Virus record (IMG/VR): IMGVR_UViG_3300025108_000056
Span: 1 to 57,294 of that record
Reading direction: 5' to 3' (one strand)
Length of the DNA stretch: 57,294 nucleotides
Source of the DNA: a virus
Lineage: Duplodnaviria; Caudoviricetes
Part shown: positions 4,263 through 57,294 of the stretch, piece after piece
Numbering within the stretch: the first letter of the stretch is position 1
How the letters are laid out: every line of letters begins with the position of its first letter
Made by a program: the position numbers and the translations under genes
Notes under the pieces: generated by a model
What the model saw: the letters and a program-made list of their open reading frames with translations, nothing else
What the model was told of the DNA's origin: nothing
The model's database searches: none

Positions 4263-4263
4263 T

Positions 4264-29607: not shown

Positions 29608-30319
29608 TTCCTTTCCCTCTCTTGTTGTATGTTTTCTGAATCCTAATCGGTTCTTCGGATGTCAGTACATTTAGCAATCTTTGTCGCAGAGTTGTTCCTA
29701 ACCCTCTCACTTGTTTAAGTGATTCGGGAAACAACATCTCTTCAATAGACCCGCATTTTTCAAGTAATTTATCCACTAAATCTGGACCAAAGCCCGGTAT
29801 CGTAACAAGCATATCTGCTCGTACATCATTAGTGCTCACTCTCGTTATTGCTTTTGCACCATGCTTACTAGCAGGTTTGTTCATTTTAGCATGTAACTTG
29901 GCTATGAAAATACCTGCCTCGGTGTAATCCTTTGCTCGATAAATATGACAATCGAAATCTGCTGTAAGTCTGGCAAATATCCCTAGCATCATGTCTAAGA
30001 CTTTTGGATAACTGGTAGGTCTACCTTGGTTTTTACACATTGCTACATACTTAGCAATGTCACCGTGTACAAGTAGAACAACTCTGTCGCAGTTAGCGTC
30101 TAAGTTTTCTATTTGTCTCTGTAGATGACCCTTAAATGTAGATTGAATCAAATCGGATATACTTTTGCACTCTATATGAGCATTACCTGCTTTGTAATCA
30201 CCCATGCCCTGCAAATGCTCTTTCTTTACTGAGAAGCCTTCTCTTTCGGCGGCACGAATAACAGCATCATGAAGAGGTCCTCTTTCATTAGTGTCGATTA
30301 TTAGAGGAGATTTACTCAT
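29585..30319 (-). CDS. ERCC4/XPF-family structure-specific nuclease with HhH
   Basis: IIDTNE, GDY, IECKSISDL; C-terminal IPGFG...VRGLG helix-hairpin-helix. Confidence 0.88.
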   Translation of the reverse strand: MSKSPLIIDTNERGPLHDAVIRAAEREGFSVKKEHLQGMGDYKAGNAHIECKSISDLIQSTFKGHLQRQIENLDANCDRVVLLVHGDIAKYVAMCKNQGRPTSYPKVLDMMLGIFARLTADFDCHIYRAKDYTEAGIFIAKLHAKMNKPASKHGAKAITRVSTNDVRADMLVTIPGFGPDLVDKLLEKCGSIEEMLFPESLKQVRGLGTTLRQRLLNVLTSEEPIRIQKTYNKRGKGNDGTQSR

Positions 30320-30554
30320 AGCCTTTCCTCCTACATAATGCACATTTGTCTATGTTCCTATCAAACCGAACACCATTACACAGCCGACCACTTTTGATAA
30401 TCCGTGTGCATAGCAGATTTCTTGGAACTAGTTTTTTGTACCTACAGACTTGGCAGATAATAACTGGGTCTTCGATAGATTCGTATCTATCTCTCATACT
30501 TTTGGTGGCTCTGACACGCTTTTCACAAATCTCACAATAGTGCAATGTCATCAC
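30312..30554 (-). CDS. Cys-rich Zn-finger protein
   Basis: CEIC, CQVC, C...C and CALC motifs. Confidence 0.6.
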   Translation of the reverse strand: MMTLHYCEICEKRVRATKSMRDRYESIEDPVIICQVCRYKKLVPRNLLCTRIIKSGRLCNGVRFDRNIDKCALCRRKGYE

Positions 30555-31658: not shown

Positions 31659-31916
31659 TCACTTCCTGCTTTCTATGATTTTGTCTATGGTGCTAATTAG
31701 TTCGCCTGTATCTTGTAAAAGATAGTTGTTCAGAGTGATGTACATAGGTCCCTTCGGCCCTTGTACATTCTCGTCAAACTCGTATAGCGATGTTTGAATA
31801 GCGATACTATAGTCGTTACCTTTACCTAAATGAGAAAAGTTAACTTCTACATTTCTGTCTACAACCATAGTCATCATTTTTTCTATCAAACGGCTTACCA
31901 TCCTTTTATCCATCAT
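31659..31916 (-). CDS. Hypothetical protein
   Basis: Coupled ORF within the replication operon. Confidence 0.55.
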   Translation of the reverse strand: MMDKRMVSRLIEKMMTMVVDRNVEVNFSHLGKGNDYSIAIQTSLYEFDENVQGPKGPMYITLNNYLLQDTGELISTIDKIIESRK

Positions 31917-32908
31917 TCTTCCTCCTGATAATTATCCAAATATTCTTGTGGATTGTCACTTCCTTCCCATGCCGGGCAGATTTCTTTAAAACTACACCAA
32001 GCACATTTACCCGCACTAGAACTAGTAGGGAAATCACCAGTCAGATAAGCCGTAATCAAACCTACTTTTAGTTTGTCAATTTGCTTAGTATATGTAGTAT
32101 CCATACTCTCGGTAATCCTTTCATAAAATATTTTGTTGATGCTTCTTTGCTCATAGCCGTATCTGTTGAGGGAATCTAGCCCTTCTACTGTACCCGATGG
32201 GTAAACCCAACCCCAGTGCGTCACATCTTGTAAAGGATGGTCTGCCAACTTTAGCAACTTCTTGTAAAAGGCCATTTCTCTTCTCATAGACTTTACTTTG
32301 AAATCTGAGTCTTTCCACTCATCGTTTCTTTTAGTTTGAACCCACTTGCCTGTTTTCAATTCCATGATGGCTACGCCGCCTTCTTCTTCGCTGAAACCAC
32401 GGTCAATGCTGCCCGCATAGTGAATCGGTATAGTGTGTACTTCGCCATTGAATTCAATCTCTTCTTCGATATAAGCGTGTATCTCAGATTCATTGATAAT
32501 AGGTAAATAGTCATCTACTCCTACATGCTTCAATCTCTGTAAGTCCCAGTGTATTCTGGTATCAATCGACGGTTGTTCACCCAATTGATATTCTTTGTCA
32601 GGTAAAATGGATTTAGCCAGTTCAAGTGCTTCTTTCATCTTGTCTCTTTGTACAAGAGTATGTAATTCACCTACTATTGGCATGACATTGTCATAATAAA
32701 ACTCTATAGCGTCGTGTACATTTGTACCCTTTGTCATAGCGTCTGTCGATGGCTCTGGTAAACGATGAATACGCTTGTATTCATACTGTTTAGGGCAGAA
32801 ATCGAAGTCACTGGTGAGACTAGTCTTCGTGATACGAAGCATCTTTTCATGGCCCGGCTCCCACTGATAGGTAGATTTAGCGTAGGCACTCCAGTCTCTA
32901 TCGCTCAT
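31913..32908 (-). CDS. Cas4/RecB-like PD-(D/E)xK exonuclease with Fe-S cysteines
   Basis: FCPKQY, GTNVH, GSIDR, ELKTGK, CAWCSFKEICP; start MSDRDW at 32908 overlaps the upstream stop (ATGA). Confidence 0.85.
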   Translation of the reverse strand: MSDRDWSAYAKSTYQWEPGHEKMLRITKTSLTSDFDFCPKQYEYKRIHRLPEPSTDAMTKGTNVHDAIEFYYDNVMPIVGELHTLVQRDKMKEALELAKSILPDKEYQLGEQPSIDTRIHWDLQRLKHVGVDDYLPIINESEIHAYIEEEIEFNGEVHTIPIHYAGSIDRGFSEEEGGVAIMELKTGKWVQTKRNDEWKDSDFKVKSMRREMAFYKKLLKLADHPLQDVTHWGWVYPSGTVEGLDSLNRYGYEQRSINKIFYERITESMDTTYTKQIDKLKVGLITAYLTGDFPTSSSAGKCAWCSFKEICPAWEGSDNPQEYLDNYQEEE

Positions 32909-33090
32909 TCCGTTTCCTCCTCGATTAATTTCTGTAGGTAGACAGCCAAATCCATCGCTTCCTCTTGGGCGTGGATAAGCCATTCTAGCCTAGACAAAGG
33001 TGCAGTTTCCATAGTAACTCCATACTTACTTTTACCTACTTCTGCTCTTTGCTGTATCTTTTTACATACTTCGTCTTCTATTCTACTCAT
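32905..33090 (-). CDS. Small all-alpha phage protein, possibly MazG/NTP-pyrophosphatase-like
   Basis: RAEVGKSKYG...WLIHAQEEAMDLAVY with an EExxD motif. Confidence 0.5.
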   Translation of the reverse strand: MSRIEDEVCKKIQQRAEVGKSKYGVTMETAPLSRLEWLIHAQEEAMDLAVYLQKLIEEETE

Positions 33091-36411: not shown

Positions 36412-37446
36412 TCAGATTACACCGTCTCGTAGTTCAGGTAAACCGTACCACTGTGCGTCTTCACCCTTCTTAGTTACGAAGTAAAGTCGTTCTTGGTTCA
36501 ACAAGTTTGGGTTAGTCTTCTGCTTGAAGAACTCAGCAGTGTATCTAACTTCGCCAGTCAAAGAGCCATCATTGTTTCTCATATACTTGTTTTTACACCA
36601 TAGTATCTGGAACAGGTCTTTGTTACCACTGGCATGCCAAGCAAACTTCCATCCGTCAAATCCTACTTTGCCATCTTTGTCTTCTTTAAGATGAGTCTCC
36701 CAATAGACATCAACACCTAGTCTGTTCAGTTTTTGACACTGAGCAGTTAGTTGCTTGAATCTTGTAGCACGAATATTCCAGTTCCAACCAATCTCGGCAT
36801 TGAGTTTGGAGTGACTGGCTTCGACAGCGTTAGTAGCAGTCATGTCCAAGTCGTAAATCTTCATACAGGTAATACACATCTCATCAAACTGGTCAACGCC
36901 AGTGACGATGAATGATTTGAGCATCGGTCCTTCAAAGTCCGGCTTGTACTGATTCTCTGCGTATTCTACAGCAAACTTAGCAAGTTCCATGACTCGGTTG
37001 TAACTGAGTAAGTAGTTGTAGGCAGTCTTGTCTTCCTGTTGCATAACCCAAGGCGAGAATATACGGAAGGCAGGGTCGTTGTTGTAGTGAGCCTGCTTAC
37101 AAGATAGGCCACCGTTATCGTGGTCAATTACAATACAAAGAGAGTCGCCATGCTTATGCTTATGAGCATCCATAGCCAGACCAGTCTTACCAGTACCTTC
37201 GTGACCAACTACGCCCATGAAAGTAGCACTAGGTTGTATAGCAGGCGCTTTCGCTTGCTCTTTCATTTCCTGTGCAATAGCAGGGAACCTACTGATAAAT
37301 TCAGTAGAGGTCTCAGGAGTTAACTTCTCCTTGATATTCTGCTCTATGTTTTCTTGAACCACAGGCTCAGCGGCTGCTGGTGCAACCGGCTGAGTTGTAG
37401 TTACTGGCTGTGCTTCGTCTCCTAGTAATGCATCCCATCCACTCAT
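36412..37446 (-). CDS. P-loop ATPase, Sak4/RadA-like recombinase
   Basis: GHEGTGKT Walker A, IDHDNG, VTGVDQF; adjacent to an SSB-like gene. Confidence 0.7.
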   Translation of the reverse strand: MSGWDALLGDEAQPVTTTQPVAPAAAEPVVQENIEQNIKEKLTPETSTEFISRFPAIAQEMKEQAKAPAIQPSATFMGVVGHEGTGKTGLAMDAHKHKHGDSLCIVIDHDNGGLSCKQAHYNNDPAFRIFSPWVMQQEDKTAYNYLLSYNRVMELAKFAVEYAENQYKPDFEGPMLKSFIVTGVDQFDEMCITCMKIYDLDMTATNAVEASHSKLNAEIGWNWNIRATRFKQLTAQCQKLNRLGVDVYWETHLKEDKDGKVGFDGWKFAWHASGNKDLFQILWCKNKYMRNNDGSLTGEVRYTAEFFKQKTNPNLLNQERLYFVTKKGEDAQWYGLPELRDGVI

Positions 37447-39638: not shown

Positions 39639-39665
39639 CCTTTGTTAGTTCTTTATATAGTCAAT
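39639..39665 (-). promoter_or_regulatory. Conserved viral TATA promoter element, copy 1 (heads the replication operon)
   Basis: ATTGACTATATAAAGAACTAACAAAGG on the minus strand, upstream of rfcS. Confidence 0.8.
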
Positions 39666-41539: not shown

Positions 41540-41813
41540 CTGTTTCCCTCAGTTCTTCGAGGGTATGTGTTAATGCTTTGATTAGAGTGCTTGTATCTTC
41601 AAGTGACAACCTTACGCCCTCTCTCGTAAAGCCTTCACCCTTCGGATGCTCTATTGTTCTTCGAGTTCTAATATCAATGGCAGGTTTACCTCGACCTTTA
41701 GGAGTAGCAACGCTCATGACTATCTCAGCCTTTCCTTTCCACTTAGCAGTGGTTGAAGGAACACGCCACTTAATCTCTTGGTCGAATGCACTCAAGCAAC
41801 CACTTCCCACCAA
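41523..41813 (-). CDS. PC4-like ssDNA-binding/transcription cofactor
   Basis: GKPAIDIR...FTREGVRLS matches the PC4 family pattern (yIDIR...PTKKGISL); start uncertain. Confidence 0.65.
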   Translation of the reverse strand: MVGSGCLSAFDQEIKWRVPSTTAKWKGKAEIVMSVATPKGRGKPAIDIRTRRTIEHPKGEGFTREGVRLSLEDTSTLIKALTHTLEELRETDDINK

Positions 41814-42298
41814 GTAGGAACATCGGCTCGGATATATCTTACACCGCCTTTACTGTATTCCTTAGACTTGTAGTAAGACCTGTAGGCTTTGACTACATCA
41901 TCGTCTTTGTATTCGTCGGGCATGGCCTGTGCGAATGGTGTGAGTCCAGTGTTAGGAATTATTTTTTGCAAACCTATCATGTGGTAGATAGGGTCAGTAC
42001 AAGCATGCATTTTATTGAATCGTTTGTAGTATTCTTCACACAATTGCATAGCGTGATGAGCAAGCCACATCCAATTCTCTTGACTGTCGCCAGCCCATAT
42101 TGTGCATGGGTGGTGTTTGTAGCCACCAATGTAAGGCGTTCCTTTCTTAGTCAGAGGCATCTCTTCATCAGTAGCACCATGCCTACGCAGGGCTGATGCC
42201 ATCATTTGTGCGCTTTCTACACACATCTTAGGTAGTCTGACATCATCTAGGTATCTAGCGGCTTGCGCTGGGTCTTCGTCTAATACAAATATATTCAT
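41792..42298 (-). CDS. Pyrimidine-dimer DNA glycosylase (DenV/endonuclease V)-like protein
   Basis: MNIFVLDEDP...KMCVESAQM...HHPCTIW...EYYKRFNKMH...FAQAMPDEYK...AYRSYY. Confidence 0.8.
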   Translation of the reverse strand: MNIFVLDEDPAQAARYLDDVRLPKMCVESAQMMASALRRHGATDEEMPLTKKGTPYIGGYKHHPCTIWAGDSQENWMWLAHHAMQLCEEYYKRFNKMHACTDPIYHMIGLQKIIPNTGLTPFAQAMPDEYKDDDVVKAYRSYYKSKEYSKGGVRYIRADVPTWWEVVA

Positions 42299-45016: not shown

Positions 45017-45043
45017 CCTTTGTTAGTTCTTTATATAGTGAAT
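45017..45043 (-). promoter_or_regulatory. Conserved viral TATA promoter element, copy 2
   Basis: ATTCACTATATAAAGAACTAACAAAGG upstream of the DUF932 gene. Confidence 0.8.
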
Positions 45044-47958: not shown

Positions 47959-48167
47959 GCCGTCACTCTCCGTTGTATGTAGCGCCGTTGGCCAACTGAA
48001 CCAGTTGGTCAATTGCATACTCTCTGTCCTTTTGACTAGTGCTGTCTTTAGCAATCAGTTCTAGGAATCTAATGTAACCTGCTTTCTTAGGTGTCATGTT
48101 CATATTCAAGCCCCCGTGTATTCTTCGTAGATGTATTCTTCTGTTTCGATTCTAAGTTTTAGTTCAC

Positions 48168-48422
48168 TCATTCTTCTTCGCCTCTGTATCTAATTTTATT
48201 TATGAAGTCAAAGGCATCCAATTGATTTTTTCCTTCACCCTCCTGTAAAAAGGAGATGTAGTTTTTCACTAGTGCTTTTAGGTTTTCATTTTCAGTCGCC
48301 TGTGCCCATCTAAGTATCATTGCAGATTGGTGAAAATCAAAATCATCTTCGTTCAATTCCCAGACAGGAACATGTAATTTCCGTGTGGTTGAATAATATT
48401 CCTTTGGTAGCGAGTTACTCAT
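48168..48422 (-). CDS. Hypothetical protein
   Basis: Coupled small ORF ending RGEEE. Confidence 0.55.
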   Translation of the reverse strand: MSNSLPKEYYSTTRKLHVPVWELNEDDFDFHQSAMILRWAQATENENLKALVKNYISFLQEGEGKNQLDAFDFINKIRYRGEEE

Positions 48423-48607
48423 TCTTCTTCACCTCTGTCAAACTGATTTACTTCTACTGGGTCAAGAGTGACTTCAATCTTACCGACTACACTTGCGATG
48501 TTCGGCTGAGGGTCAATCCCTTTCTCAATCAAATAGTTCATTCTCCAAACTTCAATTGCATGCTTTAGTTCATTCATTATTCCATCATTGTATGTCATTT
48601 TTCTCAC
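48419..48607 (-). CDS. Hypothetical protein
   Basis: First gene after promoter copy 3; ends RGEEE. Confidence 0.55.
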   Translation of the reverse strand: MRKMTYNDGIMNELKHAIEVWRMNYLIEKGIDPQPNIASVVGKIEVTLDPVEVNQFDRGEEE

Positions 48608-48614
48608 TTCTCTT

Positions 48615-48641
48615 CCTTTATTAGTTCTTTATATACTGAAT
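48615..48641 (-). promoter_or_regulatory. Conserved viral TATA promoter element, copy 3
   Basis: ATTCAGTATATAAAGAACTAATAAAGG. Confidence 0.8.
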
Positions 48642-48877
48642 CACTCCAGTGGATGGTCTATGTTCATATCTCCTAGTGTCCATCGAAGGGCTTTGACCAC
48701 ACCCTCCAACGCTTTGTAATTCCTCATGTGATACATACGGTCTTTTCTTTTACATCTCTGCATAGCAGTGTAATGTTGATTCTGTTTTTTCTCTGCTCTA
48801 TCAAGCATGTTGTGTATGTCTTCCCATGTTCTGTTGTATGCGAAGTGGTCACTATCTTGATGGTCGCTCATTGTCAT
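48641..48877 (-). CDS. Hypothetical protein
   Basis: 78-aa helical ORF (RNYKALEGVVKALRWTLG). Confidence 0.6.
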   Translation of the reverse strand: MTMSDHQDSDHFAYNRTWEDIHNMLDRAEKKQNQHYTAMQRCKRKDRMYHMRNYKALEGVVKALRWTLGDMNIDHPLE

Positions 48878-48879
48878 GT

Positions 48880-49347
48880 TTATTCCTCTTCATCGAATAA
48901 TATCTGTGCGAACCTCGAAGGTTCAAGGGTCTGCCATCCGTCTGATGATTCAATTATAAACTCAAATTTGTCGGGTTTGTATTCGTTTAAATCGACATTC
49001 ACTTTTAGTAATTTGAGCCAAACATCATCATAGTCTAATGAATCTATGATAGTCTTTGAGTATCGAGCGTAGTCGATTATCAATCCAATCCTTCTTGTGT
49101 TTAATGAGTCTAAGTAAAACTGTAAATCTAATGCTTGTTCAGTTTCCTTGTGCTGTTCCTCCATGACATCTAAGAATATGTCAGCCTTGCTTCCATCGAC
49201 TGTTTCTAACCAACCAACTCCATAGTCATCCTTCACGGCTTGCCATTCGTCTCTATCGTATTTATTACGGAGTTCTTGTTCGACGCTGATTCGATTACAT
49301 TTTTCCATCAGCGTAGAGTTATCTCCAAACGGAAAACTTCGCCTCAT
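48880..49347 (-). CDS. Hypothetical protein
   Basis: Coupled ORF with acidic tail. Confidence 0.6.
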   Translation of the reverse strand: MRRSFPFGDNSTLMEKCNRISVEQELRNKYDRDEWQAVKDDYGVGWLETVDGSKADIFLDVMEEQHKETEQALDLQFYLDSLNTRRIGLIIDYARYSKTIIDSLDYDDVWLKLLKVNVDLNEYKPDKFEFIIESSDGWQTLEPSRFAQILFDEEE

Positions 49348-49779
49348 TTATTCCTCTCCTTTCATGTTCTTTACTATGTTAGAGACATCGACTTTGTAAG
49401 TGCCGCTTTCAGTGGCTTCGGTCTCCAGTGGAAGTGTAGGTTTCTCATCTGTTTCTGTGGTTTCTTGAGAAGGTTGGTCGACATCTATCTCAATGTCTTT
49501 GAGTTTCTTACCTGCTAAATCTCCAAACAATCTTGGGTCGTTTGGTATCTCCATCAGCATAGGTGTCTTGGGTTCGATGAGATAGTTAGCACCAGATACG
49601 GTACAGATAACCTCTATCAAATCTATCTTACCGAACTCACTGCTATGAACATGGGTTTCAAACTCATGTCCAAATTGCATAGCGTTCTGTAAGTAATTGT
49701 ATGTCTGTATAGTCTTTTCAAGTTTAATCGCTTGCTCGTTTAATTCTTGTACTTGCTTTTCGTAATCTTCTTTTTTCAT
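49348..49779 (-). CDS. Hypothetical protein with N-terminal coiled coil
   Basis: Coupled ORF. Confidence 0.6.
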   Translation of the reverse strand: MKKEDYEKQVQELNEQAIKLEKTIQTYNYLQNAMQFGHEFETHVHSSEFGKIDLIEVICTVSGANYLIEPKTPMLMEIPNDPRLFGDLAGKKLKDIEIDVDQPSQETTETDEKPTLPLETEATESGTYKVDVSNIVKNMKGEE

Positions 49780-50039
49780 TCTTCATCCCTACCTAGCATA
49801 TCTTCTATAGAGTAATCTTTGATACCTGCTTCTAACAATCTATCATATAGAGTATTTAGAAAGTGAGTCAGGTCTTTTATTCTGTCATTGATTGGTTTCG
49901 CTGTTTGTTTCAAAAAGTAAAGTTCCTCAAAGACTCGCCTCGCTACTATCCTAGTATTGTTAATCTGTAATTTATCATTGTTCATATTAATCACCTCTGC
50001 TAAATGGGTTCTTTGTGGTAGACCTCCAGCACTCATCAC
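49776..50039 (-). CDS. Hypothetical protein
   Basis: True start probably MNNDKL, after a GAGGTGA site. Confidence 0.5.
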   Translation of the reverse strand: MMSAGGLPQRTHLAEVINMNNDKLQINNTRIVARRVFEELYFLKQTAKPINDRIKDLTHFLNTLYDRLLEAGIKDYSIEDMLGRDEE

Positions 50040-50105
50040 ATACCTTGTAGACAGGATGAATGTTGACGCTGGTTCTTCTTTTACATCGCTTGCATTCTAA
50101 GTCTT

Positions 50106-50231
50106 TCATTCTTCTTCCTCTTCAAGTTCTTCACGCAACCGCTTGACTTCGGCAACTAAATCCCAAAATATTCTTACCTTGTAATCATTAGTCCATTGTT
50201 TCATATTCTCTATTTCTTCTATGTCAATCAT
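50106..50231 (-). CDS. 41-aa remote member of the MID...EVKRLRE family (not in ORF track)
   Basis: MIDIEEIENMKQWTNDYKVRIFWDLVAEVKRLREELEEEEE; carries the identical 22-bp block at 50129-50150. Confidence 0.65.
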   Translation of the reverse strand: MIDIEEIENMKQWTNDYKVRIFWDLVAEVKRLREELEEEEE

Positions 50232-50422
50232 TCGTTAATCAACTCCAATATTACCTCTAGTGTTCCGTTTCTGTGTTCTATCAAATAGAGAGGCATTGCC
50301 TCTCCATGTCTTGTCTGTATAATCTGTTCATTCATTGTTATCACTCCTTAGTTGCTCATTCTCTTGTTCTAATTGTTTTATTCTCTTTCTTGCTTTCGCT
50401 AATTGTATTGCTAATCCTTTAC

Positions 50423-50620
50423 TCATTTCTTATACCCCCTTCTTTTAGTGTAAGGCATACACTTGTCATGCCTAATCGTGAGTTCTTTCTTGACCAGTAG
50501 CATCCTTGAACATGATTGACATACGGGTTCTCCGCATTTGTCACATCGAGTAACCGAATCTTTACTTCCGCACTCAGCACATTTGTCCAGTGCTACATAA
50601 GTTCCAATCATGTAAGTCAT
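50423..50620 (-). CDS. Zn-finger microprotein
   Basis: CAEC, CDKC, CQSC and H..C motifs. Confidence 0.6.
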   Translation of the reverse strand: MTYMIGTYVALDKCAECGSKDSVTRCDKCGEPVCQSCSRMLLVKKELTIRHDKCMPYTKRRGYKK

Positions 50621-50799
50621 TCATTCACCTCAATTTCATATTCGTTTCTTTCTAATGCATGTTCGATTGCATCCTTCCAACACTTGAGGAAGTAGTCTAG
50701 GTCATCTTTGACACAGCAATTCAGTAGGTCATGTTGGATATCTTCTAAGACTGATTGGTAGATTAGTTCTTTGTTAATGTAATACTTTGTCATTGTTCA

Positions 50800-51072
50800 T
50801 CACCATATCCTGTAACTGTTGAATAGTTCTTTTGTTTCACGACTCATCGGTTGTTTAAATTCAACTGCGGCAAGTGCCTCCATACCATAAACCCAATATG
50901 TATTACTTTTGCTGAACTTACCATCATCCAAGCAAGCATCCTCATCAATACAATGTTGTATCAATTTTTCATCCGACCATTCGGCTTGCTCTTTTGTTAG
51001 GATAGTATCGTAAGTGTGTTCTCTTTCTCCATCTCTTATCCAAAATGTCACCAATACAAATTCGTCTGTCAT
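50800..51072 (-). CDS. Hypothetical protein
   Basis: Preceded by GAGGAGGAATAAATATG. Confidence 0.6.
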   Translation of the reverse strand: MTDEFVLVTFWIRDGEREHTYDTILTKEQAEWSDEKLIQHCIDEDACLDDGKFSKSNTYWVYGMEALAAVEFKQPMSRETKELFNSYRIW

Positions 51073-51074
51073 AT

Positions 51075-51191
51075 TTATTCCTCCTCTTGAGTCACTTGCG
51101 CTTCTTTCAATCTCTTATTCTTCAACAATCGCTTGATGAATTTCGCTCGGTATCTGCTGTTACTTGCTTTCTTTTGGTTCTTCGTTGGCAT
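51075..51191 (-). CDS. 38-aa highly basic peptide (not in ORF track)
   Basis: MPTKNQKKASNSRYRAKFIKRLLKNKRLKEAQVTQEEE, directly downstream of promoter copy 4. Confidence 0.55.
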   Translation of the reverse strand: MPTKNQKKASNSRYRAKFIKRLLKNKRLKEAQVTQEEE

Positions 51192-51208
51192 TTTTCTCAC
51201 TTCCCTTT

Positions 51209-51235
51209 CCTTTGTTAGTTCTTTATATACTGAAA
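51209..51235 (-). promoter_or_regulatory. Conserved viral TATA promoter element, copy 4
   Basis: TTTCAGTATATAAAGAACTAACAAAGG. Confidence 0.8.
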
Positions 51236-51236
51236 A

Positions 51237-52475
51237 TTATTCTTCCTCTTCTCTAACATAAATATTGCTTACAACAGGGTCTGGGCAAAACTGCATGTAT
51301 TGCTCAACTGTTTTGACATTAGTATTCTGAGTTTCGTTAAATGTATTGAACTGCTCAGCAATCAAAGCCTCGCCACCAATCGGTGCATGTTCGATGATGT
51401 AGGATTGCATTCCTAGCATTTCCATACTAAGTTGTAAAATTTCTTGTCGCTTTTTTTCAAACTTCACGGAAGGGCAGGCTTGCTCTAACTCATAACTGTA
51501 TTCTCTTATCTTATTAGCGATAGAGTAGTCTTCAATCAAATTAGTTCGCCTGTAACGGTCATTTCGCCAATCTGTAACCAAATCGTTAAGAGAATGTTCA
51601 ACACCGTAGAAGTTTATCATTGCTTGCGCTACTGATGCACCCTTCTCGATTTTCTTTCGGTGTTCGGCTACTTTGTCATGAAGTCCATGGTGGTCATTAT
51701 AGTATTCAGTGGCCGCTTCGTAGTGTTGGGCTATTCTATTACCAAGTTGTTCGGCTTTGTTTTTCACAATTTTTCTAGTCTGTTCTGCTTGAGATTTCTT
51801 AAGGCATCGTGTAATGAAGCCGATGTTCTCAGCATACCAATCGTCGAATGCCCTCATAGTGTCAGCCGTTATGAGCATCTTATCATTATGATTAGGTAAT
51901 CTGTAGTTGGTCTGTGAATATGCAAGATAATTTCTCTTACGCTTGACTTCCTCTCCGTTAGGTAACTTACCAACGGAATGACTTACGCCTTTTTCCTTGA
52001 TTACTGCTTGCATCTCTAATGGTATATCGAATATACGGATGTCTTTGTTTTTGTTAGGGTTGTTAAGGGCTGATGTAAATACTACCATCCCTTTGTCTTT
52101 GATGTCCCATGATAGTTCCTTCAATACTTTGAGTCGGTTGAATAATGTATGTAAGTAGCCTAAGTATGGCATTTCTCCTTTGGATTCAGTGCGAAGGTAA
52201 GGTCTTGAGTCTACACCTTTGTTAGCACAACCTTCGCTGTCCCAGTAATAGTTGCTGTGCCATGTCTTGAGTAAAGGATATTGCTCGTCAGCCTGTTGCA
52301 TTCGATAGACCATCTTCTGTAGTCTGTTCATCCATTGAGTACCATCCCAGTTACCATCGGCATCTGCGACATACACAAATTCTCCTCTATTGAGTTGAGT
52401 GAGTGCATCCCACTGAGTGAGTGTTCCTTCGTTTCTTCTTGCTTTCAATTTTATCCTTTCTGTTTTCGTCATCAT
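51237..52475 (-). CDS. Hypothetical protein (412 aa, helical C-terminal half)
   Basis: Long ORF with ribosome site; no recognised motif. Confidence 0.7.
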   Translation of the reverse strand: MMTKTERIKLKARRNEGTLTQWDALTQLNRGEFVYVADADGNWDGTQWMNRLQKMVYRMQQADEQYPLLKTWHSNYYWDSEGCANKGVDSRPYLRTESKGEMPYLGYLHTLFNRLKVLKELSWDIKDKGMVVFTSALNNPNKNKDIRIFDIPLEMQAVIKEKGVSHSVGKLPNGEEVKRKRNYLAYSQTNYRLPNHNDKMLITADTMRAFDDWYAENIGFITRCLKKSQAEQTRKIVKNKAEQLGNRIAQHYEAATEYYNDHHGLHDKVAEHRKKIEKGASVAQAMINFYGVEHSLNDLVTDWRNDRYRRTNLIEDYSIANKIREYSYELEQACPSVKFEKKRQEILQLSMEMLGMQSYIIEHAPIGGEALIAEQFNTFNETQNTNVKTVEQYMQFCPDPVVSNIYVREEEE

Positions 52476-52566
52476 ATTTATTCCTCCTTGTTTTGTTTCT
52501 TTTTATTTGGGTCTTGGTAATCTTCTATACCGAGAATGTGTGCTATCAATTCATTGAGTGTCTTCA

Positions 52567-52839
52567 TCAATATCCCTCCGCTATCAAATGTTCTTGCCCG
52601 TAGTCTAACATCATCTGTTTCAATTCCTCTTGTGTATTAGGAAACTCATCATAGTCCGGTAAGTCAATTGCACCGAGAATAGAAACTATGTCTTTACGCA
52701 ACCTCTTGACTTCTTCAAGGAGAAGTGGTGCGTCATAGATTAAGTTCTCATCAGCCTTGTTAAATGGCATCTGTCCGAAATTGTATTTCCTTCTCCAATG
52801 CTTAGGTGTATGTCCTTCGTATTTGTCTGTGTCAATCAT
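52567..52839 (-). CDS. MIDTDKY-family paralog A
   Basis: MIDTDKYEGHTP...DAPLLLEEVKRLRK. Confidence 0.75.
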   Translation of the reverse strand: MIDTDKYEGHTPKHWRRKYNFGQMPFNKADENLIYDAPLLLEEVKRLRKDIVSILGAIDLPDYDEFPNTQEELKQMMLDYGQEHLIAEGY

Positions 52840-53159
52840 TCAATCACCTCTAATATATATTCCCATTCTTGCTTTTCTAATATGTCATCATGCTGTGCAT
52901 TGATACTAGCACAGTCTTTGATTTTCTTTATCACTTCACGCAACCGCTTGACTTCTGCGAGTAGTAGTGGTGCGTCTGCAATCAAGTTTGCATCAGCATT
53001 GGAAAATTCAATGACCTTATCTCCATCTTCATTAGGTTGAACATAAGCAATGAATCTGTCGTTAGGACATTTACCATTTGACACGAAATTGTTGTTTATT
53101 CTCCAACCAACTTCATTATCACCTTTAGTATGTCCTTTGTATTTGTCTGTGTCAATCAT
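52836..53159 (-). CDS. MIDTDKY-family paralog B
   Basis: MIDTDKYKGHT...ANLIADAPLLLAEVKRLRE...VIE. Confidence 0.75.
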   Translation of the reverse strand: MIDTDKYKGHTKGDNEVGWRINNNFVSNGKCPNDRFIAYVQPNEDGDKVIEFSNADANLIADAPLLLAEVKRLREVIKKIKDCASINAQHDDILEKQEWEYILEVIE

Positions 53160-53431
53160 TCAATCACCTTCTTCAATTCTTTCCAACCTTCTTCTTGCCC
53201 ATGTCTTAACCGAATGTGAAGTGCATGTTCAATACCTTCACGCAACCGCTTGACTTCTGCTAAGAGAAGTGGTGCGTCTACGGCAAGTAGTCGGTCAGCC
53301 ATCGGAACTTGAATCCAATTTTCTGTTTCGTCTAAGCCATCAACAGTCCACACCTTGATGGCCTGAACATCATATCCACCTGTCTTCCAAGGCGCAGGTG
53401 TATGTCCTTTGTATTTGTCTGTGTCAATCAT
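53156..53431 (-). CDS. MIDTDKY-family paralog C
   Basis: MIDTDKYKGHTPAPW...DAPLLLAEVKRLRE...VIE. Confidence 0.75.
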   Translation of the reverse strand: MIDTDKYKGHTPAPWKTGGYDVQAIKVWTVDGLDETENWIQVPMADRLLAVDAPLLLAEVKRLREGIEHALHIRLRHGQEEGWKELKKVIE

Positions 53432-53634
53432 TCAATCACCTCTTTAGGATTGAACCCCTCAAAATACAAGAAGGATTCATACTTCTTATTCTCTTCACGC
53501 AACCGCTTGACTTCGGCTAGAAGTTTTGGTGCGTCTGCTATGAGTTGTTTGTCAATGCTACCAACTGGGCAGTATTCACTCAACTTATCCCACGGTGCAG
53601 GTGTATGTCCTTCGTATTTGTCTGTGTCAATCAT
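53428..53634 (-). CDS. MIDTDKY-family paralog D
   Basis: MIDTDKYEGHTPAPW...LIADAPKLLAEVKRLRE...VIE. Confidence 0.75.
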   Translation of the reverse strand: MIDTDKYEGHTPAPWDKLSEYCPVGSIDKQLIADAPKLLAEVKRLREENKKYESFLYFEGFNPKEVIE

Positions 53635-53879
53635 TCTTCATCCCTCGGATTGATTACCATAATTGGTTTGTTTATATTATAAGCGTCTATTGATGCTTTA
53701 CAGTCATGCGCTTTGCCAGTGACGAGGTTGAATCTACCAAGCATAAACAACAGCCCGTTAGTAGTATATCCTTCTTCGATATAACAGATTATCTTTTTAC
53801 GCATGGTTTCTTCTGCTTCGTTCTTGATTGTGTTAGCATAATCGTCTAGTTCTTGTAATGTTATTTCCATTTTTCTCAC
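53631..53879 (-). CDS. Hypothetical protein
   Basis: First gene after promoter copy 5; coupled to the paralog array. Confidence 0.6.
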   Translation of the reverse strand: MRKMEITLQELDDYANTIKNEAEETMRKKIICYIEEGYTTNGLLFMLGRFNLVTGKAHDCKASIDAYNINKPIMVINPRDEE

Positions 53880-53886
53880 TTCCTTT

Positions 53887-53913
53887 CCTTTGTTAGTTCT
53901 TTATATAGTCAAT
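53887..53913 (-). promoter_or_regulatory. Conserved viral TATA promoter element, copy 5
   Basis: ATTGACTATATAAAGAACTAACAAAGG; its TGA is the stop of the upstream ORF. Confidence 0.8.
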
Positions 53914-54202
53914 CTTGGCTGTAGAGGTCAAAATGCTTCTCAATGAATTGAAAAGCCTCCATGATTTTATCCTCAGCATATTGTATTGTTTTGTTTAAGG
54001 CTTTTTCATTGTCGTATCTCAAGTTATCTTCGCCTCCGAACTCGACATACTTCTGATAGAAATTACATTGTTCGTGTAGTGGTGTGCTGTTCCAAGGTTC
54101 AGAAATCCAATGCCAGCATTTTTCACTGAACAATTCCATACCTTCCTCACCCAAGAAAATTGCACTTAACATCCATCCTTTATCTTCATCTGTCAATTTC
54201 AT
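53909..54202 (-). CDS. Hypothetical protein
   Basis: GAGGAATAAATATG junction upstream. Confidence 0.6.
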   Translation of the reverse strand: MKLTDEDKGWMLSAIFLGEEGMELFSEKCWHWISEPWNSTPLHEQCNFYQKYVEFGGEDNLRYDNEKALNKTIQYAEDKIMEAFQFIEKHFDLYSQD

Positions 54203-54204
54203 AT

Positions 54205-54432
54205 TTATTCCTCTTGTTCAATATCCCTGTAGTCTTGTAGTTTAGCGTATCTTATGACTTCGATTACATGACCGCATTCTTCCCAATCCTCTTCTTCTAT
54301 TTCGTTGTCACAATAATGTGTGAATCTAAAGGATAGATGGCCGTCAGCCACATCCTCTAAGTCCCCTTGCCACATATCTTCATCATCTACATCTGTTATT
54401 TTACAGCACTTTGCACATCTTATTTCTGTCAT
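54205..54432 (-). CDS. Acidic Zn-ribbon protein
   Basis: CAKC...C...CGH motifs. Confidence 0.6.
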   Translation of the reverse strand: MTEIRCAKCCKITDVDDEDMWQGDLEDVADGHLSFRFTHYCDNEIEEEDWEECGHVIEVIRYAKLQDYRDIEQEE

Positions 54433-54450
54433 ATTTATTCATCTCCTTAT

Positions 54451-54476
54451 CTTTGTTAGTTCTTTATATAGTCAAT
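54451..54476 (-). promoter_or_regulatory. Conserved viral TATA promoter element, copy 6
   Basis: ATTGACTATATAAAGAACTAACAAAG. Confidence 0.8.
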
Positions 54477-54508
54477 CGCTTCTTTCTCGTATTGTGTTAT
54501 CTCTTCAT

Positions 54509-54802
54509 TCATATTAGTTCACCTTCCTCATTGTATTCCCATAGTCCAAAGTCTCCATCTTCCCATGCCCAAAAGACATTGTCTGGTCTTTCAGTTTCCA
54601 CATTGAGGTATTCAATTGCTTCATCTACAAAGCAAATCAGAACATCAAGGTCTGTCATTTCTTCTGCGTTAAGGTCAGTAGCATCCCAACCATGTTGATA
54701 TGTGAACTCAATTATCCTTCTCGTGTTGTATTCAAATCCGAATGCCGCATCGAAGTAGCATCCTATGTCTTCTCTTGTGTATTTATCTTTCATGTTCTTC
54801 AT
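54509..54802 (-). CDS. Hypothetical acidic protein
   Basis: EAIEYLN...WEDGDFGLW. Confidence 0.6.
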   Translation of the reverse strand: MKNMKDKYTREDIGCYFDAAFGFEYNTRRIIEFTYQHGWDATDLNAEEMTDLDVLICFVDEAIEYLNVETERPDNVFWAWEDGDFGLWEYNEEGELI

Positions 54803-54981
54803 CTCCTTACTATTTCATATTCTACCTTAGCCGTTATCATGATATTCATTAGTCGCCAAAGAGCCGTATCGCTATACTTTGCCAATTCAGCAAAATCCTC
54901 AATGTCTTTTATGATGCTGTTAAATTTGTTCTCTTCTAGTTCTTTGTGTCTACCATTTGTAAAAATCTCATTCTGTTGCAT
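54799..54981 (-). CDS. Hypothetical protein
   Basis: Coupled small ORF. Confidence 0.5.
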   Translation of the reverse strand: MQQNEIFTNGRHKELEENKFNSIIKDIEDFAELAKYSDTALWRLMNIMITAKVEYEIVRR

Positions 54982-54983
54982 AT

Positions 54984-55943
54984 TTATTCATCTCCTTTTT
55001 TGATTGATTCAATCATGTAGTCAGCCGCTTTTTGGGCTTCGTGGAATGCTAGACCTAGAGCCTCATCTTTGTCTTCACAGGACTTCAACCATGACTGTAA
55101 GTAAGCCGCATTGTTAGCGTTCTCTTCTTGCACTGAATCCGGTACGAATTCACCACCGAGCCGCATGACTACAAGCATGGATGATAGTTCTGCTATCAGT
55201 TCTTCAAAGGCGTATGCTTTGGTGCCGAAACCGTTGCCTAGTGGCCGCTTCAATCTACTTGAGTGACCTGTCGAATGACCTGCTTCGTGGAATGCTGTCA
55301 TGACCTCACCGATTGGAGTGATGAAAGAGTCATGGGTAGGTAGTTGGATAAGGTCAGCACTGCTTCGATAGAAAGCCCTGTTGCCGCCAGTCTTGAAGGT
55401 GATACCTTCGTTCTTGATGTAGTCGTTAAAGTGCTTCATCATATCATGAGTCGGCTTGACTTCTGCTGTCGGGTCAGGCTTTGGTGCTTCGTAGTCCTCG
55501 CACTGCTCAATGTTGAATACCTCATACCACTTTCTAATCCATCGGTATTTGATTTCGATAGTGCCGTCGTCTTGTTCTTCTTCGTATGGCTTTCGCTCAG
55601 CATACTTGACGATGCAACCGCTACCATTCTTGAGTCCCTTGATAGAAAGTCCTGCGTTGATTAGTTGCTTTCTTGTAGCGAATCTTAGGTCAGTCCAACC
55701 TCTAAACATTCCTTCAATCATAAGCCTCATGGTATTGCCACCTCGATACTCTTTCTTACTTGCTAGGTTCATCGGTATGCCGTCAAATCCAGTGCCGTTA
55801 GGCTTCCATGGCTTTTGCCACGGAAGGTGGTTTGTTTGAATTGCCTCAGCAAATGTGTCGAACCATGCTTGCTCGCATTTCTCATTCCATTCTTTTGATT
55901 TCTTTGGGTTGTATTTTCTCTTGCTCTTTGCCATAATTTTCAT
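54984..55943 (-). CDS. ardC: ArdC-like antirestriction protein (ssDNA-binding domain plus zincin-like domain)
   Basis: LPWQKPW, NLASKKEYRGGN, FATRKQ, VFNIEQ, RAFY...DLIQLP, FHEAGHSTGH..RLKR, YAFEELIAE, AAYLQSW, AQKAADY. Confidence 0.92.
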   Translation of the reverse strand: MKIMAKSKRKYNPKKSKEWNEKCEQAWFDTFAEAIQTNHLPWQKPWKPNGTGFDGIPMNLASKKEYRGGNTMRLMIEGMFRGWTDLRFATRKQLINAGLSIKGLKNGSGCIVKYAERKPYEEEQDDGTIEIKYRWIRKWYEVFNIEQCEDYEAPKPDPTAEVKPTHDMMKHFNDYIKNEGITFKTGGNRAFYRSSADLIQLPTHDSFITPIGEVMTAFHEAGHSTGHSSRLKRPLGNGFGTKAYAFEELIAELSSMLVVMRLGGEFVPDSVQEENANNAAYLQSWLKSCEDKDEALGLAFHEAQKAADYMIESIKKGDE

Positions 55944-55951
55944 CTCCTTTT

Positions 55952-55977
55952 CTTTGTTAGTTCTTTATATAGTCAAT
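55952..55977 (-). promoter_or_regulatory. Conserved viral TATA promoter element, copy 7
   Basis: ATTGACTATATAAAGAACTAACAAAG upstream of ardC; its TGA is the stop of the upstream ORF. Confidence 0.8.
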
Positions 55978-56419
55978 TTTCTTTTAGCCCTTCACTGTAC
56001 TGATTGTTCAACCATGCGTTCTCGGCTGATGTCGTGAATCTGTAGCCGTTTTTCATAGCGTGACAGCATTCGTAACAGAAGTCCTCGTTTGCTTCTTTTT
56101 CACCTTTACACTTTCCATTATAGTGCCAGTTGAAGTGTTTATCTTTTCTTCGTGGGTTCCCATCATCATCAAATGTAACTTCGCTGAGTGGTATTTCCGA
56201 CCATGCTCTACCGTTGTTAGGGCAATCGGTATATTCGGTAATTGAAGTGACTTTAGGTTTGTAGTCGTGAAGGCCATAAGCGTCGTTGTAATGAGCCTCG
56301 TGGTTTTCTACCATTCTCAATGCTTCTGCTTTCGATGTCGCTTCGACTGCAAAGCAGTACGCTGTTTTTTCAATTCTTTCAATGTTATAAACTCTCTTTG
56401 TTATTTTCATTTTATTCAC
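55973..56419 (-). CDS. Hypothetical protein with Cys cluster
   Basis: VEATSKAEALR motif; C-terminal C...C...CYEC. Confidence 0.6.
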   Translation of the reverse strand: MNKMKITKRVYNIERIEKTAYCFAVEATSKAEALRMVENHEAHYNDAYGLHDYKPKVTSITEYTDCPNNGRAWSEIPLSEVTFDDDGNPRRKDKHFNWHYNGKCKGEKEANEDFCYECCHAMKNGYRFTTSAENAWLNNQYSEGLKEN

Positions 56420-56424
56420 CTCTA

Positions 56425-56470
56425 CATTTTCATTTGTATCTCGACAACATTTTCATTTGTATCTCGACAA
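56425..56470. repeat. Perfect 23-bp tandem duplication
   Basis: cattttcatttgtatctcgacaa occurs twice (56425-56447 and 56448-56470). Confidence 0.9.
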
Positions 56471-56663
56471 TAGTGCCGTAATAGTGTGTTAATTTAGACC
56501 TCCAAACCCATTGAGGGTATTGAGTTCTCAAATACTTGAGTAGTCCTCTAACAGTGGGGAAGTGGCGACTAGTATGAGAATGACTGCCACCTATAAGTTT
56601 GTAGTCGTTAGTTAATGTTAATCCTGCTTTTTTATCGTAGCAGTATTGTGTTCTCCATGTCAT
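56430..56663 (-). CDS. Hypothetical basic protein
   Basis: GGTGAATAAATATG junction upstream; C-terminus altered by the tandem duplication. Confidence 0.55.
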   Translation of the reverse strand: MTWRTQYCYDKKAGLTLTNDYKLIGGSHSHTSRHFPTVRGLLKYLRTQYPQWVWRSKLTHYYGTIVEIQMKMLSRYK

Positions 56664-56817
56664 ATTTATTCACCTATTATTTCTGCTAATTCTTCAAATT
56701 CGTCAAGTACTTGGTTGATTGATTCCATCATTTCGATAGCGTGGTCGTGTAGTGGCGTGTTCAACAATGATAGTACTTTGTCTAGTATTGTGTCTTTGGT
56801 TGTTTGAAACATTTGAT

Positions 56818-57279
56818 TCACTCCTCTTCCTCGTCGAATACTGATTCTCTAAATTCGCTTACCTTATCCCATTTAGGTTGATTGATATGTTGGCCAGTTG
56901 TTTCAACTTTGACTTTGAATTGAATGTTGTATTCATCAACCTCAATGGTAAATTCATTTTCTGCGGTATTGTAACCGTTTTCTAAATTCCTTTCGATGTC
57001 ATTTAATCCGCTTTTCCAGTAGCCTTCAAGTAGTTGTCTTGCTTGTTGAATGCCGACTTCTATACTTGCTCTTGTGAAGATGCCGCAGTAGACATTGAAT
57101 TTGGTTGGTAGTGGTTCATCGTTATAGAGACTCTTTGAGTGACCTCTTTCAGTCCAGTATTTTTGATATTGAATTGCATCCTTGAGCATTTGTTTTGCTT
57201 CTTTCAAATCCCTAGTCTTCCATTCTTGTTCTTCGTATTCTGTTTGCTGTGCAATTATGTGCATTAATCTGTTACTCAT
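56818..57279 (-). CDS. Hypothetical protein
   Basis: 153-aa ORF with AGGAGATG upstream and an acidic tail. Confidence 0.6.
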   Translation of the reverse strand: MSNRLMHIIAQQTEYEEQEWKTRDLKEAKQMLKDAIQYQKYWTERGHSKSLYNDEPLPTKFNVYCGIFTRASIEVGIQQARQLLEGYWKSGLNDIERNLENGYNTAENEFTIEVDEYNIQFKVKVETTGQHINQPKWDKVSEFRESVFDEEEE

Positions 57280-57294
57280 TTTTCTTCATCTCCT

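Follow-up and report, generated by a model that had tools for sequence, protein, structure and literature searches.

Near-invariant coding blocks as candidate recombination anchors in a small-gene array of a magrovirus-like archaeal virus

Results

A four-gene array of constant and variable segments

We analyzed an array of four small genes (g1 to g4) on the minus strand of a 57,294-nucleotide viral DNA, IMG/VR record IMGVR_UViG_3300025108_000056. This whole stretch, referred to here as the window, is the complete virus record, which is linear and estimated to be 55% complete. The genes of the array share two short DNA blocks, R1 and R2, and differ in the segments between and after these blocks (V1 and V2). 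An earlier note, prepared from the sequence alone, had described four ATGA-coupled genes with two near-invariant blocks, an R1 of 34 bp with one variable position and three extended copies, unit spacings of 203, 272 and 320 bp, and V segments of differing length. All of this was confirmed by open reading frame (ORF) analysis and motif scans, which placed V1 at 22-50 and V2 at 21-41 amino acids. The components of the array are as follows.

53428-53634, minus strand: g1, 68-amino-acid paralogue with V1 of 22 and V2 of 21 amino acids (ORF translation, alignment)
53156-53431, minus strand: g2, 91-amino-acid paralogue with V1 of 40 and V2 of 26 amino acids (ORF translation, alignment)
52836-53159, minus strand: g3, 107-amino-acid paralogue with V1 of 50 and V2 of 32 amino acids; best family signal (ORF, phrog_1273)
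52567-52839, minus strand: g4, 90-amino-acid paralogue with V1 of 24 and V2 of 41 amino acids; R2 with 2 mismatches
53603-53636, minus strand: R1 copy 1, a junction cassette with the upstream stop, the start codon and 10 initial codons
53400-53433, minus strand: R1 copy 2
53128-53161, minus strand: R1 copy 3
52808-52841, minus strand: R1 copy 4
53493-53535, minus strand: constant block of g1
53236-53278, minus strand: constant block of g2
52934-52976, minus strand: constant block of g3
52692-52734, minus strand: constant block of g4, its R2 with 2 mismatches
50106-50231, minus strand: fifth, degenerate member, a 41-amino-acid ORF in which the R1 head has decayed and R2 (50129-50150) is exact

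Each paralogue was found to be built in the order R1, V1, constant block and V2. The four genes are linked in series by ATGA overlaps, with start-to-start spacings of 320, 272 and 203 nt, and an 82-amino-acid upstream gene overlaps g1 likewise. All four proteins start with MIDTDKY[EK]GHT and hold the motif DAP[LK]LL[AE]EVKRLR[EK]. At the protein level g2, g3 and g4 were 47-54% identical to g1, with 25 invariant columns of which nearly all fall in the constant blocks; the V segments could not be aligned among the four genes. The R1 34-mer, with its one R position, matched 4 of 4 copies with 0 mismatches and matched 0 of 100 shuffles, and an extension of R1, AGGTGATT, was present in three of the window copies. 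The constant block consists of GACGCACCA (upstream of R2 in 4 of 4 array genes), a 12-nt polymorphic core that specifies Leu/Lys codons and an Ala/Glu codon, and the 22-nt R2. The description of R2 as a repeat held for g1, g2 and g3, in which the 22-mer is exact. In g4, R2 carries two mismatches (CGG>AGG and GAA>AAA), and the exact copy in the fifth member had been overlooked. At the site of this fifth member, one related locus (L118) has a different R1-headed gene of 119 amino acids with the break 14 nt into R1, and another (L141) has no ORF.

Spread and synonymous-site conservation of the constant blocks

Viral records were searched for both blocks. Exact copies of an R1 21-mer were detected in at least 118 IMG/VR stretches and of the R2 22-mer in 50, revealing that the blocks are widespread and not local to the window; among the matches listed, 1 to 5 exact R1 copies were present per stretch. 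By contrast, in a collection of 185,579 species genomes R1 occurred on one 9-kb contig only, in five copies. This cellular record (L218, NZMJ01000078.1, 9259 bases) is a short contig of a metagenome-assembled genome labelled Maricaulis, and is probably a viral contig that was binned with a bacterium. On many contigs of 80-110 kb, such as those of L002, L008, L009, L015, L029, L030 and L075, the R1-bearing stretch lies within about 5-25 kb of a contig end; the array of the window lies about 4 kb from its right end.

The viruses that carry the blocks are deeply diverged. When the SNF2 helicase of 57 loci was compared to that of the window, amino-acid identity was 35-70% and identity at four-fold sites was 0.20-0.45, which corresponds to saturation. 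The exceptions were L048 and L191, which belong to a single contig that is near-identical to the window and reached 0.88-0.90 at four-fold sites.

Synonymous sites were compared inside and outside the blocks. Loci were picked by back-translated peptide patterns to avoid selecting them by nucleotide identity; 207 stretches matched, 145 were confirmed and 77 loci were kept. In 123 unique-context occurrences of MIDTDKY, the codons ATT and ACA were each used in 123 of 123, the two Asp codons were GAC in 114 and 120, and AAA and TAC were used in 117 and 115, respectively. A similar uniformity was detected for EVKRLR, which played no part in choosing the loci: in 119 occurrences the codons were GAA (116), GTC (112), AAG (116), CGG (100), TTG (109) and CGT (105). 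The uncorrected synonymous difference between random pairs was 0.134 per site for R1, 0.088 for DAP and 0.193 for R2, compared to 0.591 for the three Leu codons that separate DAP from R2. Third positions held 1.3-2.0 bits of information in R1 and R2 and 0.1-0.3 bits in the intervening Leu codons. Among loci that had been chosen via these blocks, the only 21-mers common to at least 12 of 52 locus groups were pieces of R1, R2 and (LIA)DAP.

Codon bias was ruled out as the cause. In the long ORFs of the window, CGG and CGT account for 1% and 12% of Arg codons, GTC for 23% of Val, ACA for 32% of Thr and ATT for 32% of Ile; the fixed codons are thus minor ones, and bias toward preferred codons does not explain the blocks. 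The possibility that a second reading frame encodes an overlapping gene was likewise rejected, as the interval from R1 to R2 was open in the +1 frame for 5 of 119 genes and in the +2 frame for 1 of 119. The proposal that synonymous sites are conserved beyond what paralogue drift would leave was therefore borne out, also when weighed against codon bias.

Exchange of modules at the blocks

Linkage of V1 and V2 was examined in 119 unique genes with R1 and an R2-like motif. V1 was at least 60% identical in protein sequence in 33 pairs; V2 was shared by 4 of these pairs and was below 35% identity in 28. Conversely, in 13 of the 20 pairs that shared V2, identity in V1 was below 35%. V1 and V2 are thus largely unlinked and reassort.

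Shared modules were also apparent at the nucleotide level. L098 and L116 were 97.7% identical over 131 nt, precisely from R1 to the end of R2, and similar tracts were found for L109/L119 (96.4% over 111 nt) and L159/L183 (95.2% over 165 nt). V2 modules were shared from the constant block to the stop codon by L128/L159 (95% over 159 nt) and L144/L169 (94.8% over 153 nt). The flanks of these tracts were without similarity, and the contigs came from different datasets. When loci of different groups were compared and tracts with 90% identity or more were mapped, 263 of 698 tract ends were located in R1 or the constant block, compared to about 23 expected from the share of length that the blocks occupy. 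Together with the unlinking of V1 and V2, this distribution supports the earlier suggestion that the blocks are borders of exchange.

The 12-nt core was found to follow neither neighbor. It was identical in 1 of the 28 pairs that share V1 only, in 0 of the 13 pairs that share V2 only and in 3% of unrelated pairs. By contrast, the LIADAP stretch travels with V1 (identical in 7 of 28) and the codons after R2 with V2 (4 of 13). Absence of linkage to either side is the pattern expected if crossovers and heteroduplex repair were concentrated in the core. In 100 aligned copies, the core (e.g., window positions 53515-53526) occurs as a few recurring haplotypes, for example CTTCTCCTTGAA, CTTCTCTTAGCA, CTACTGCTCGCA and AAACTTCTAGCA, and these show no linkage to V1 or to V2.

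Close relatives of the window had flanks of 90-95% identity and a different array content. The array of L077, a related locus, was considered as a plain R2 by R2 deletion of the window array and was rejected as such, since it carries other genes and one paralogue with V segments of its own.

R1 at gene junctions

In 195 unique contexts of R1, the upstream ORF ended in ATGA for 147 and in ATGATTGA for 24, such that 171 of 195 copies were at coupled stop-start junctions. ATGATTGA corresponds to the first eight letters of R1 and provides a start codon as well as stops in both other frames; it is followed within R1 by eight fixed codons. R1 is often preceded by a Shine-Dalgarno-like sequence, GAGGTGAT, that is located inside the tail of the upstream gene.

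R1 was found to head genes outside the array family. The 207 unique R1-headed proteins included 120 with an R2-like motif and 49 more with a DAP-like block. Of the remaining 38, 11 resembled family bodies and 27, in 18 clusters, were unrelated to the family, including small CxxC proteins and a protein of 193 amino acids. For 17 pairs of genes with similar bodies, both flanks were different in 11, the same in 5 and mixed in 1. Judged from these contexts, R1 is a universal and portable type of gene junction.

Many of the small minus-strand genes in the 48000-57294 region encode acidic C-terminal tails (..EEE, ..DEE, ..VIE), because the Shine-Dalgarno-like sequence of the next gene and the ATGA overlap sit in the last codons. 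In related loci the commonest protein ends before R1 were GEEE, EMIE, EVIE, DEEE and KVIE.

Presence of the array segments in public samples

In two independent public samples, the V segments of the window were present with 0 differences and at a depth like that of the flanks. In one of these (sample X7), the depths were 110.7, 136.3, 123.6 and 91.9 for the V segments and 127.6 and 113.8 for the flanks. These data are Logan contigs (k=31) that break at R1 and R2 and do not prove the order of the segments. Joints within the k=31 contigs had sides of 24-42 nt that fit the anchors of relatives and are not evidence of rearrangement in this virus. Two further samples (X11 and X12) contained only parts or relatives.

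Protein family of the array genes

The array genes had been likened to Ead/Ea22 proteins of phages. This assignment was not upheld, as none of g1 to g4 matched Pfam Ead_Ea22 (PF13935) at E of at most 1; the pointer to this family was one Atlas cluster at rank 26 with a feature score of 0.83, a lead only. With the phrog_1273 profile, g3 was matched at an E value of 8.5e-5, g4 and g1 weakly (0.034 and 0.064, respectively) and g2 not at all at E of at most 0.1. At E of at most 1e-3, g3 had 1370 homologues. A precomputed PF27050 label (Phage_P22_Y8K6, according to the Atlas) was present on 15 of the 120 listed, including P0001, which is 99% identical to g3. Based on these matches, the family of small accessory proteins to which the four paralogues belong is probably PF27050-like. 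PF27050 and PHROG 1273 are both families of small phage proteins.

Other searches of the array proteins returned no family assignment. In the local Pfam copy g1 to g4 matched no family, a PDB sequence-profile search gave only weak, coiled-coil-like matches (best E of 0.039), and NCBIfam yielded nothing relevant. The ratio of non-synonymous to synonymous change (pN/pS) within shared modules was 0.27 for V1 (15 pairs) and 0.17 for V2 (9 pairs); the variable parts therefore encode a selected protein. An early, host-interaction or anti-defence role had been envisioned for the array genes, and no result of the present analysis supports it.

Flanks of the array and a promoter-like cassette

The array operon is headed by a repeated cassette, the core of which is TATATAAAGAACTAACAAAGG. 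Seven copies with at most 1 mismatch were located in the window; each lies upstream of a gene start on the minus strand and is followed by a Shine-Dalgarno-like stretch and an ATG. The cassette is probably a promoter, as judged from its TATA-like sequence and its position. Beyond the window, exact copies were confined to its closest relatives, which make up 3 of 213 other loci: L074, and L048 and L191, which are one and the same stretch.

53887-53907, minus strand: core of the TATA-like promoter/leader cassette, TATATAAAGAACTAACAAAGG, that heads the array operon (7 window copies, at most 1 mismatch)
39639-39659, 45017-45037, 48615-48635, 51209-51229, 53887-53907, 54450-54470 and 55951-55971, minus strand: the 21-nt copies of TATATAAAGAACTAACAAAGG
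53631-53879, minus strand: first gene of the operon, 82 amino acids, conserved left flank of the array (ORF)
52478-52570, minus strand: short ORF that borders the array on the right and is conserved (nucleotide identity of 88-96% in L012, L141 and L077)

The 82-amino-acid gene had a nucleotide identity of 93.7% in L074 and 73% in L077, and the array content downstream of it differs.

Virus context and candidate recombination genes

The gene content of the window was compared to that of magroviruses, viruses of marine group II archaea for which Philosof et al. (PMC5434244) describe a chaperonin gene within the replication cluster and, in group A, an SNF2 helicase. Pfam profile matches in the window included a family B DNA polymerase (PF00136, 1e-36), an RFC-like AAA protein (AAA, 6.7e-15; DNA_pol3_delta2, 1.8e-11), a chaperonin (PF00118 Cpn60_TCP1, 1e-129) and an SNF2 helicase (PF00176, 9.6e-34). 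The large subunit of primase was matched weakly (6.2e-4; 19.6 bits, under the 22.4-bit cutoff). The window thus encodes an archaeal-type replication module of family B DNA polymerase, RFC-like clamp loader and archaeo-eukaryotic primase (the last by a weak match), accompanied by the chaperonin and SNF2 genes. It looks like a magrovirus-like archaeal virus, in agreement with the published description and with the guess made in the earlier note. A blastn search of the INPHARED phage collection with 7.3 kb of the window gave no match, nor did tblastn with g3 against its 50,697 phage records at E of at most 0.01. No tRNAs were found.

Three genes are candidates for a role in recombination.

36412-37446, minus strand: Sak4-like ATPase, candidate recombination helper (phrog_124, E of 6.6e-6; no Pfam match)
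31913-32983, minus strand: PD-(D/E)XK exonuclease, candidate recombination helper (PF12705, E of 1.1e-14; phrog_1218, E of 8e-13)
29585-30343, minus strand: ERCC4-domain nuclease, candidate structure-specific nuclease (PF02732, E of 4.8e-9)

Among the helper genes that had been proposed, the exonuclease was confirmed and the Sak4-like ATPase was weakly supported, while a single-stranded DNA-binding protein (SSB) did not turn up in profile scans of the window proteins. The ERCC4 nuclease is an additional candidate that was absent from the original list. Near the replication genes, the minus strand encodes this ERCC4-domain nuclease, a protein with a pyrimidine-dimer DNA glycosylase domain and an ArdC-like protein with a zincin-like peptidase domain (29585-30343, 41792-42298 and 54984-55943, respectively). 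On the plus strand, a single ORF of 5497 amino acids (4255-20748), neither half of which matched Pfam at E of at most 1e-4, sits among plus-strand genes that include one with a match to a PHROG family of virion structural proteins.

Discussion

Recombination at the constant blocks

Based on the mosaic structure of the related loci, we favor, with moderate confidence, a model in which the constant blocks are in-frame recombination anchors for modular shuffling and are common to a diverged magrovirus population. In this model R1 would serve as the gene-to-gene junction, and (LIA)DAP with the 12-nt core and R2 would form the joint inside the genes. Homologous recombination between related or co-infecting viruses would cross over within the blocks, and the Sak4-like, PD-(D/E)XK and ERCC4 genes of the virus may take part. 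Such crossovers would swap half-genes (R1-V1-block, or block-V2-next R1) as well as whole small genes, and the swaps would preserve reading frame and translational coupling. We infer that the mechanism is general homologous recombination. The blocks would stay invariant because anchors go on spreading only as long as they are intact, by drive or second-order selection, and not because of a separate cis function. Drive fits the rare codons, the portability of the blocks and the contrast to the lineage-specific promoter cassette.

Several points weigh against this model. No recombination event was directly seen in the Logan k=31 contigs, which break at the repeats. The near-saturated Leu third positions, 12 nt wide between invariant blocks, are not predicted by drive alone, and site-specific nucleotide selection predicts this pattern more simply. 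Identical nucleotide sequences were collapsed before V1 and V2 were counted, which lowers the class of pairs that share both. Chimeric joins could arise at repeats in metagenome assemblies; we regard these as unlikely because the repeats are shorter than reads. Finally, gene conversion within a genome, which the earlier note had raised, was not seen in locus groups that were built by single linkage and are coarse: mean differences within compared to between groups were 6.56 vs 6.98 for R1 copies (24 of 300 permutations were as low) and 19.28 vs 19.19 for constant-block copies, such that copies within a group were no more alike than copies between groups.

More ambitious versions of the model carry less weight. 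That selection or drive for recombinability keeps the anchors letter-perfect, as a population-wide plug-and-socket system in which half-genes and whole genes of very distant relatives recombine in frame and stay translationally coupled to yield a combinatorial repertoire of host-interaction proteins, is in our estimation rather doubtful. Active, anchor-guided reshuffling by viral enzymes during infection is a stronger form that is not required. Programmed shuffling within one virus is likewise distinct from what was observed, which is mosaicism at the level of the population.

Alternative explanations

The best-surviving alternative, which we hold to be possible but improbable, is that R1 and R2 are cis-acting RNA or DNA elements and that recombination is a by-product of their identity; the two explanations are compatible. 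R1 would then work as an operator or as a cassette for termination-reinitiation or translation start, and the constant block as an mRNA hairpin or binding site. Consistent with this, conservation in R1, DAP and R2 is as high at third positions as at first and second ones, the intervening Leu codons are near saturation at their third positions, and most R1 copies are at coupled stop-start junctions. R1 was predicted to be mostly unpaired (unpaired fraction of 0.65 vs 0.46 elsewhere). R2 was predicted to be mostly paired (unpaired fraction of 0.34), chiefly with the DAP-Leu stretch, and a 13-bp two-helix hairpin was formable in 92.8% of cells over 100 sequences. The structure was, however, derived from the consensus, and compensatory change was detected in 0 of its 13 pairs. 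Fold z-scores were weak (-1.3, -1.4, +0.3 and -2.2), the fifth R2 copy was without the hairpin, and the letters of R2 were kept where the DAP arm is missing. A search of Rfam 15 with positions 49500-54500 on both strands gave 0 matches at E of at most 1. Moreover, the promoter/leader cassette, which is a probable regulatory element, is bound to its lineage, whereas R1 and R2 cross lineages with 35% identity in SNF2. Pairing between R1 and R2 was also considered and found to be negligible (mean of 0.07 bp).

A dedicated, programmed diversifier, in which a sequence-specific enzyme acts at R1 and R2 to reshuffle cassettes during infection in the manner of V(D)J, integron or pilin systems, appears unlikely. 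The sites are short and sharply bounded, with the 12-nt core between imperfect inverted arms (ACGCACC and GGTTGCGT) and uncoupled from both flanks, and R1 copy number ranges from 1 to 5 exact copies per stretch among the matches listed, all of which would suit such a system. Nevertheless, the neighborhood of the arrays yielded no candidate recombinase, none of the joints in the k=31 contigs could be assigned to this virus, each V segment was at flank-like depth in the two independent samples, and general homologous recombination suffices for the pattern.

It is very unlikely that assembly fused sequences of co-occurring strains at shared repeats and so produced the mosaics and perhaps also the array. 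Two observations would fit such an artifact: all related sequences are metagenome contigs, and k=31 unitigs break exactly at R1 and R2. The repeats of 18-43 nt should, however, be below the usual read length and the larger k values of assembly. The V segments of the window were recovered free of differences in two independent samples, the same modules recur across contigs from different datasets, and 204 unique R1-headed genes retain their reading frame and coupling.

Least credible of all is that the paralogues are ordinary recent tandem duplicates with blocks shared through recency, protein constraint or codon bias: the blocks do encode the conserved residues of the family, but the codon, SNF2 and synonymous-difference results already contradict this explanation, in that the fixed codons are minor, Leu sites within the block are near saturation and their neighbors are not, V segments cannot be aligned between paralogues, the same blocks are found in viruses with saturated synonymous sites, and no overlapping gene accounts for the conservation.

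Comparison to known systems

Short conserved elements termed PeSLs are found in a hyperplastic region of T4-type phages that is rich in small genes (Arbiol et al. 2010, PMC2839356). As described there, the genes next to PeSLs vary among close relatives, and PeSLs are put forward as sites of homologous recombination by which these genes are shuffled; the elements are about 100 bp, intergenic, and composed of a promoter and a terminator stem-loop, and mini-circles were shown (PMC2839356). R1 and R2 likewise recur among small genes and border content that differs between close relatives, and R1 and the constant block are, like PeSLs, repeated elements at the break points of gene gain, loss and replacement. 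They are not intergenic promoter and terminator stem-loops, as they are in frame inside genes and the promoter/leader cassette of the window is a separate repeat. Unlike PeSLs, R1 and R2 are 18-34 nt in length, are coding, and also swap half-genes within genes; they are in archaeal viruses and are kept across far deeper divergence, and mini-circles are a feature of PeSLs. PeSLs of T4-type phages are reportedly also the subject of Comeau et al. 2014 (PMC4122927).

A constant-variable-constant-variable layout within one protein has a parallel in the gp38 adhesins of T-even phages, which bind receptors and have conserved glycine-rich motifs between hypervariable segments (Trojet et al. 2011, PMC3157838). 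The array proteins differ from gp38 in protein, function and host domain. Furthermore, the anchors described here serve in addition as the gene junction and stand at the start of unrelated genes, and conservation of their synonymous sites was measured across a whole viral group.

In the modular theory of Botstein (1980), homologous linkers are said to lie between the functional modules of lambdoid phages and to be intergenic. R1 resembles such a linker in being a short conserved sequence at module borders that would direct legitimate recombination, and differs in being coding and in holding a stop, a start and eight codons. In the mini-cassette antigenic variation of gonococcal pilE/pilS, short conserved blocks frame variable segments and serve as crossover points; systems of this type have silent donors, one expression site per genome and high-frequency switching. 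By contrast, the array copies are all intact, coupled genes, and exchange was seen between genomes. Neither recombination nor mosaic structure was mentioned in the magrovirus literature searched by term, a search that covered texts outside the supplements.

Significance

That phages evolve by shuffling modules at conserved linkers has long been proposed, and clean examples are few. Judged from the loci compared here, the anchors are unusual in being coding, in acting both within and between genes, and in being conserved across deeply diverged archaeal viruses. At synonymous sites the anchors are 3 to 7 times better conserved than neighboring codons; they use rare codons and persist among viruses with core genes only 35% identical in protein. 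The viruses are uncultured, and their hosts belong to one of the most abundant groups of archaea in the surface ocean. If the anchors were indeed kept for recombinability, they would represent a natural test case for second-order selection on evolvability and a natural template for in-frame module swapping.

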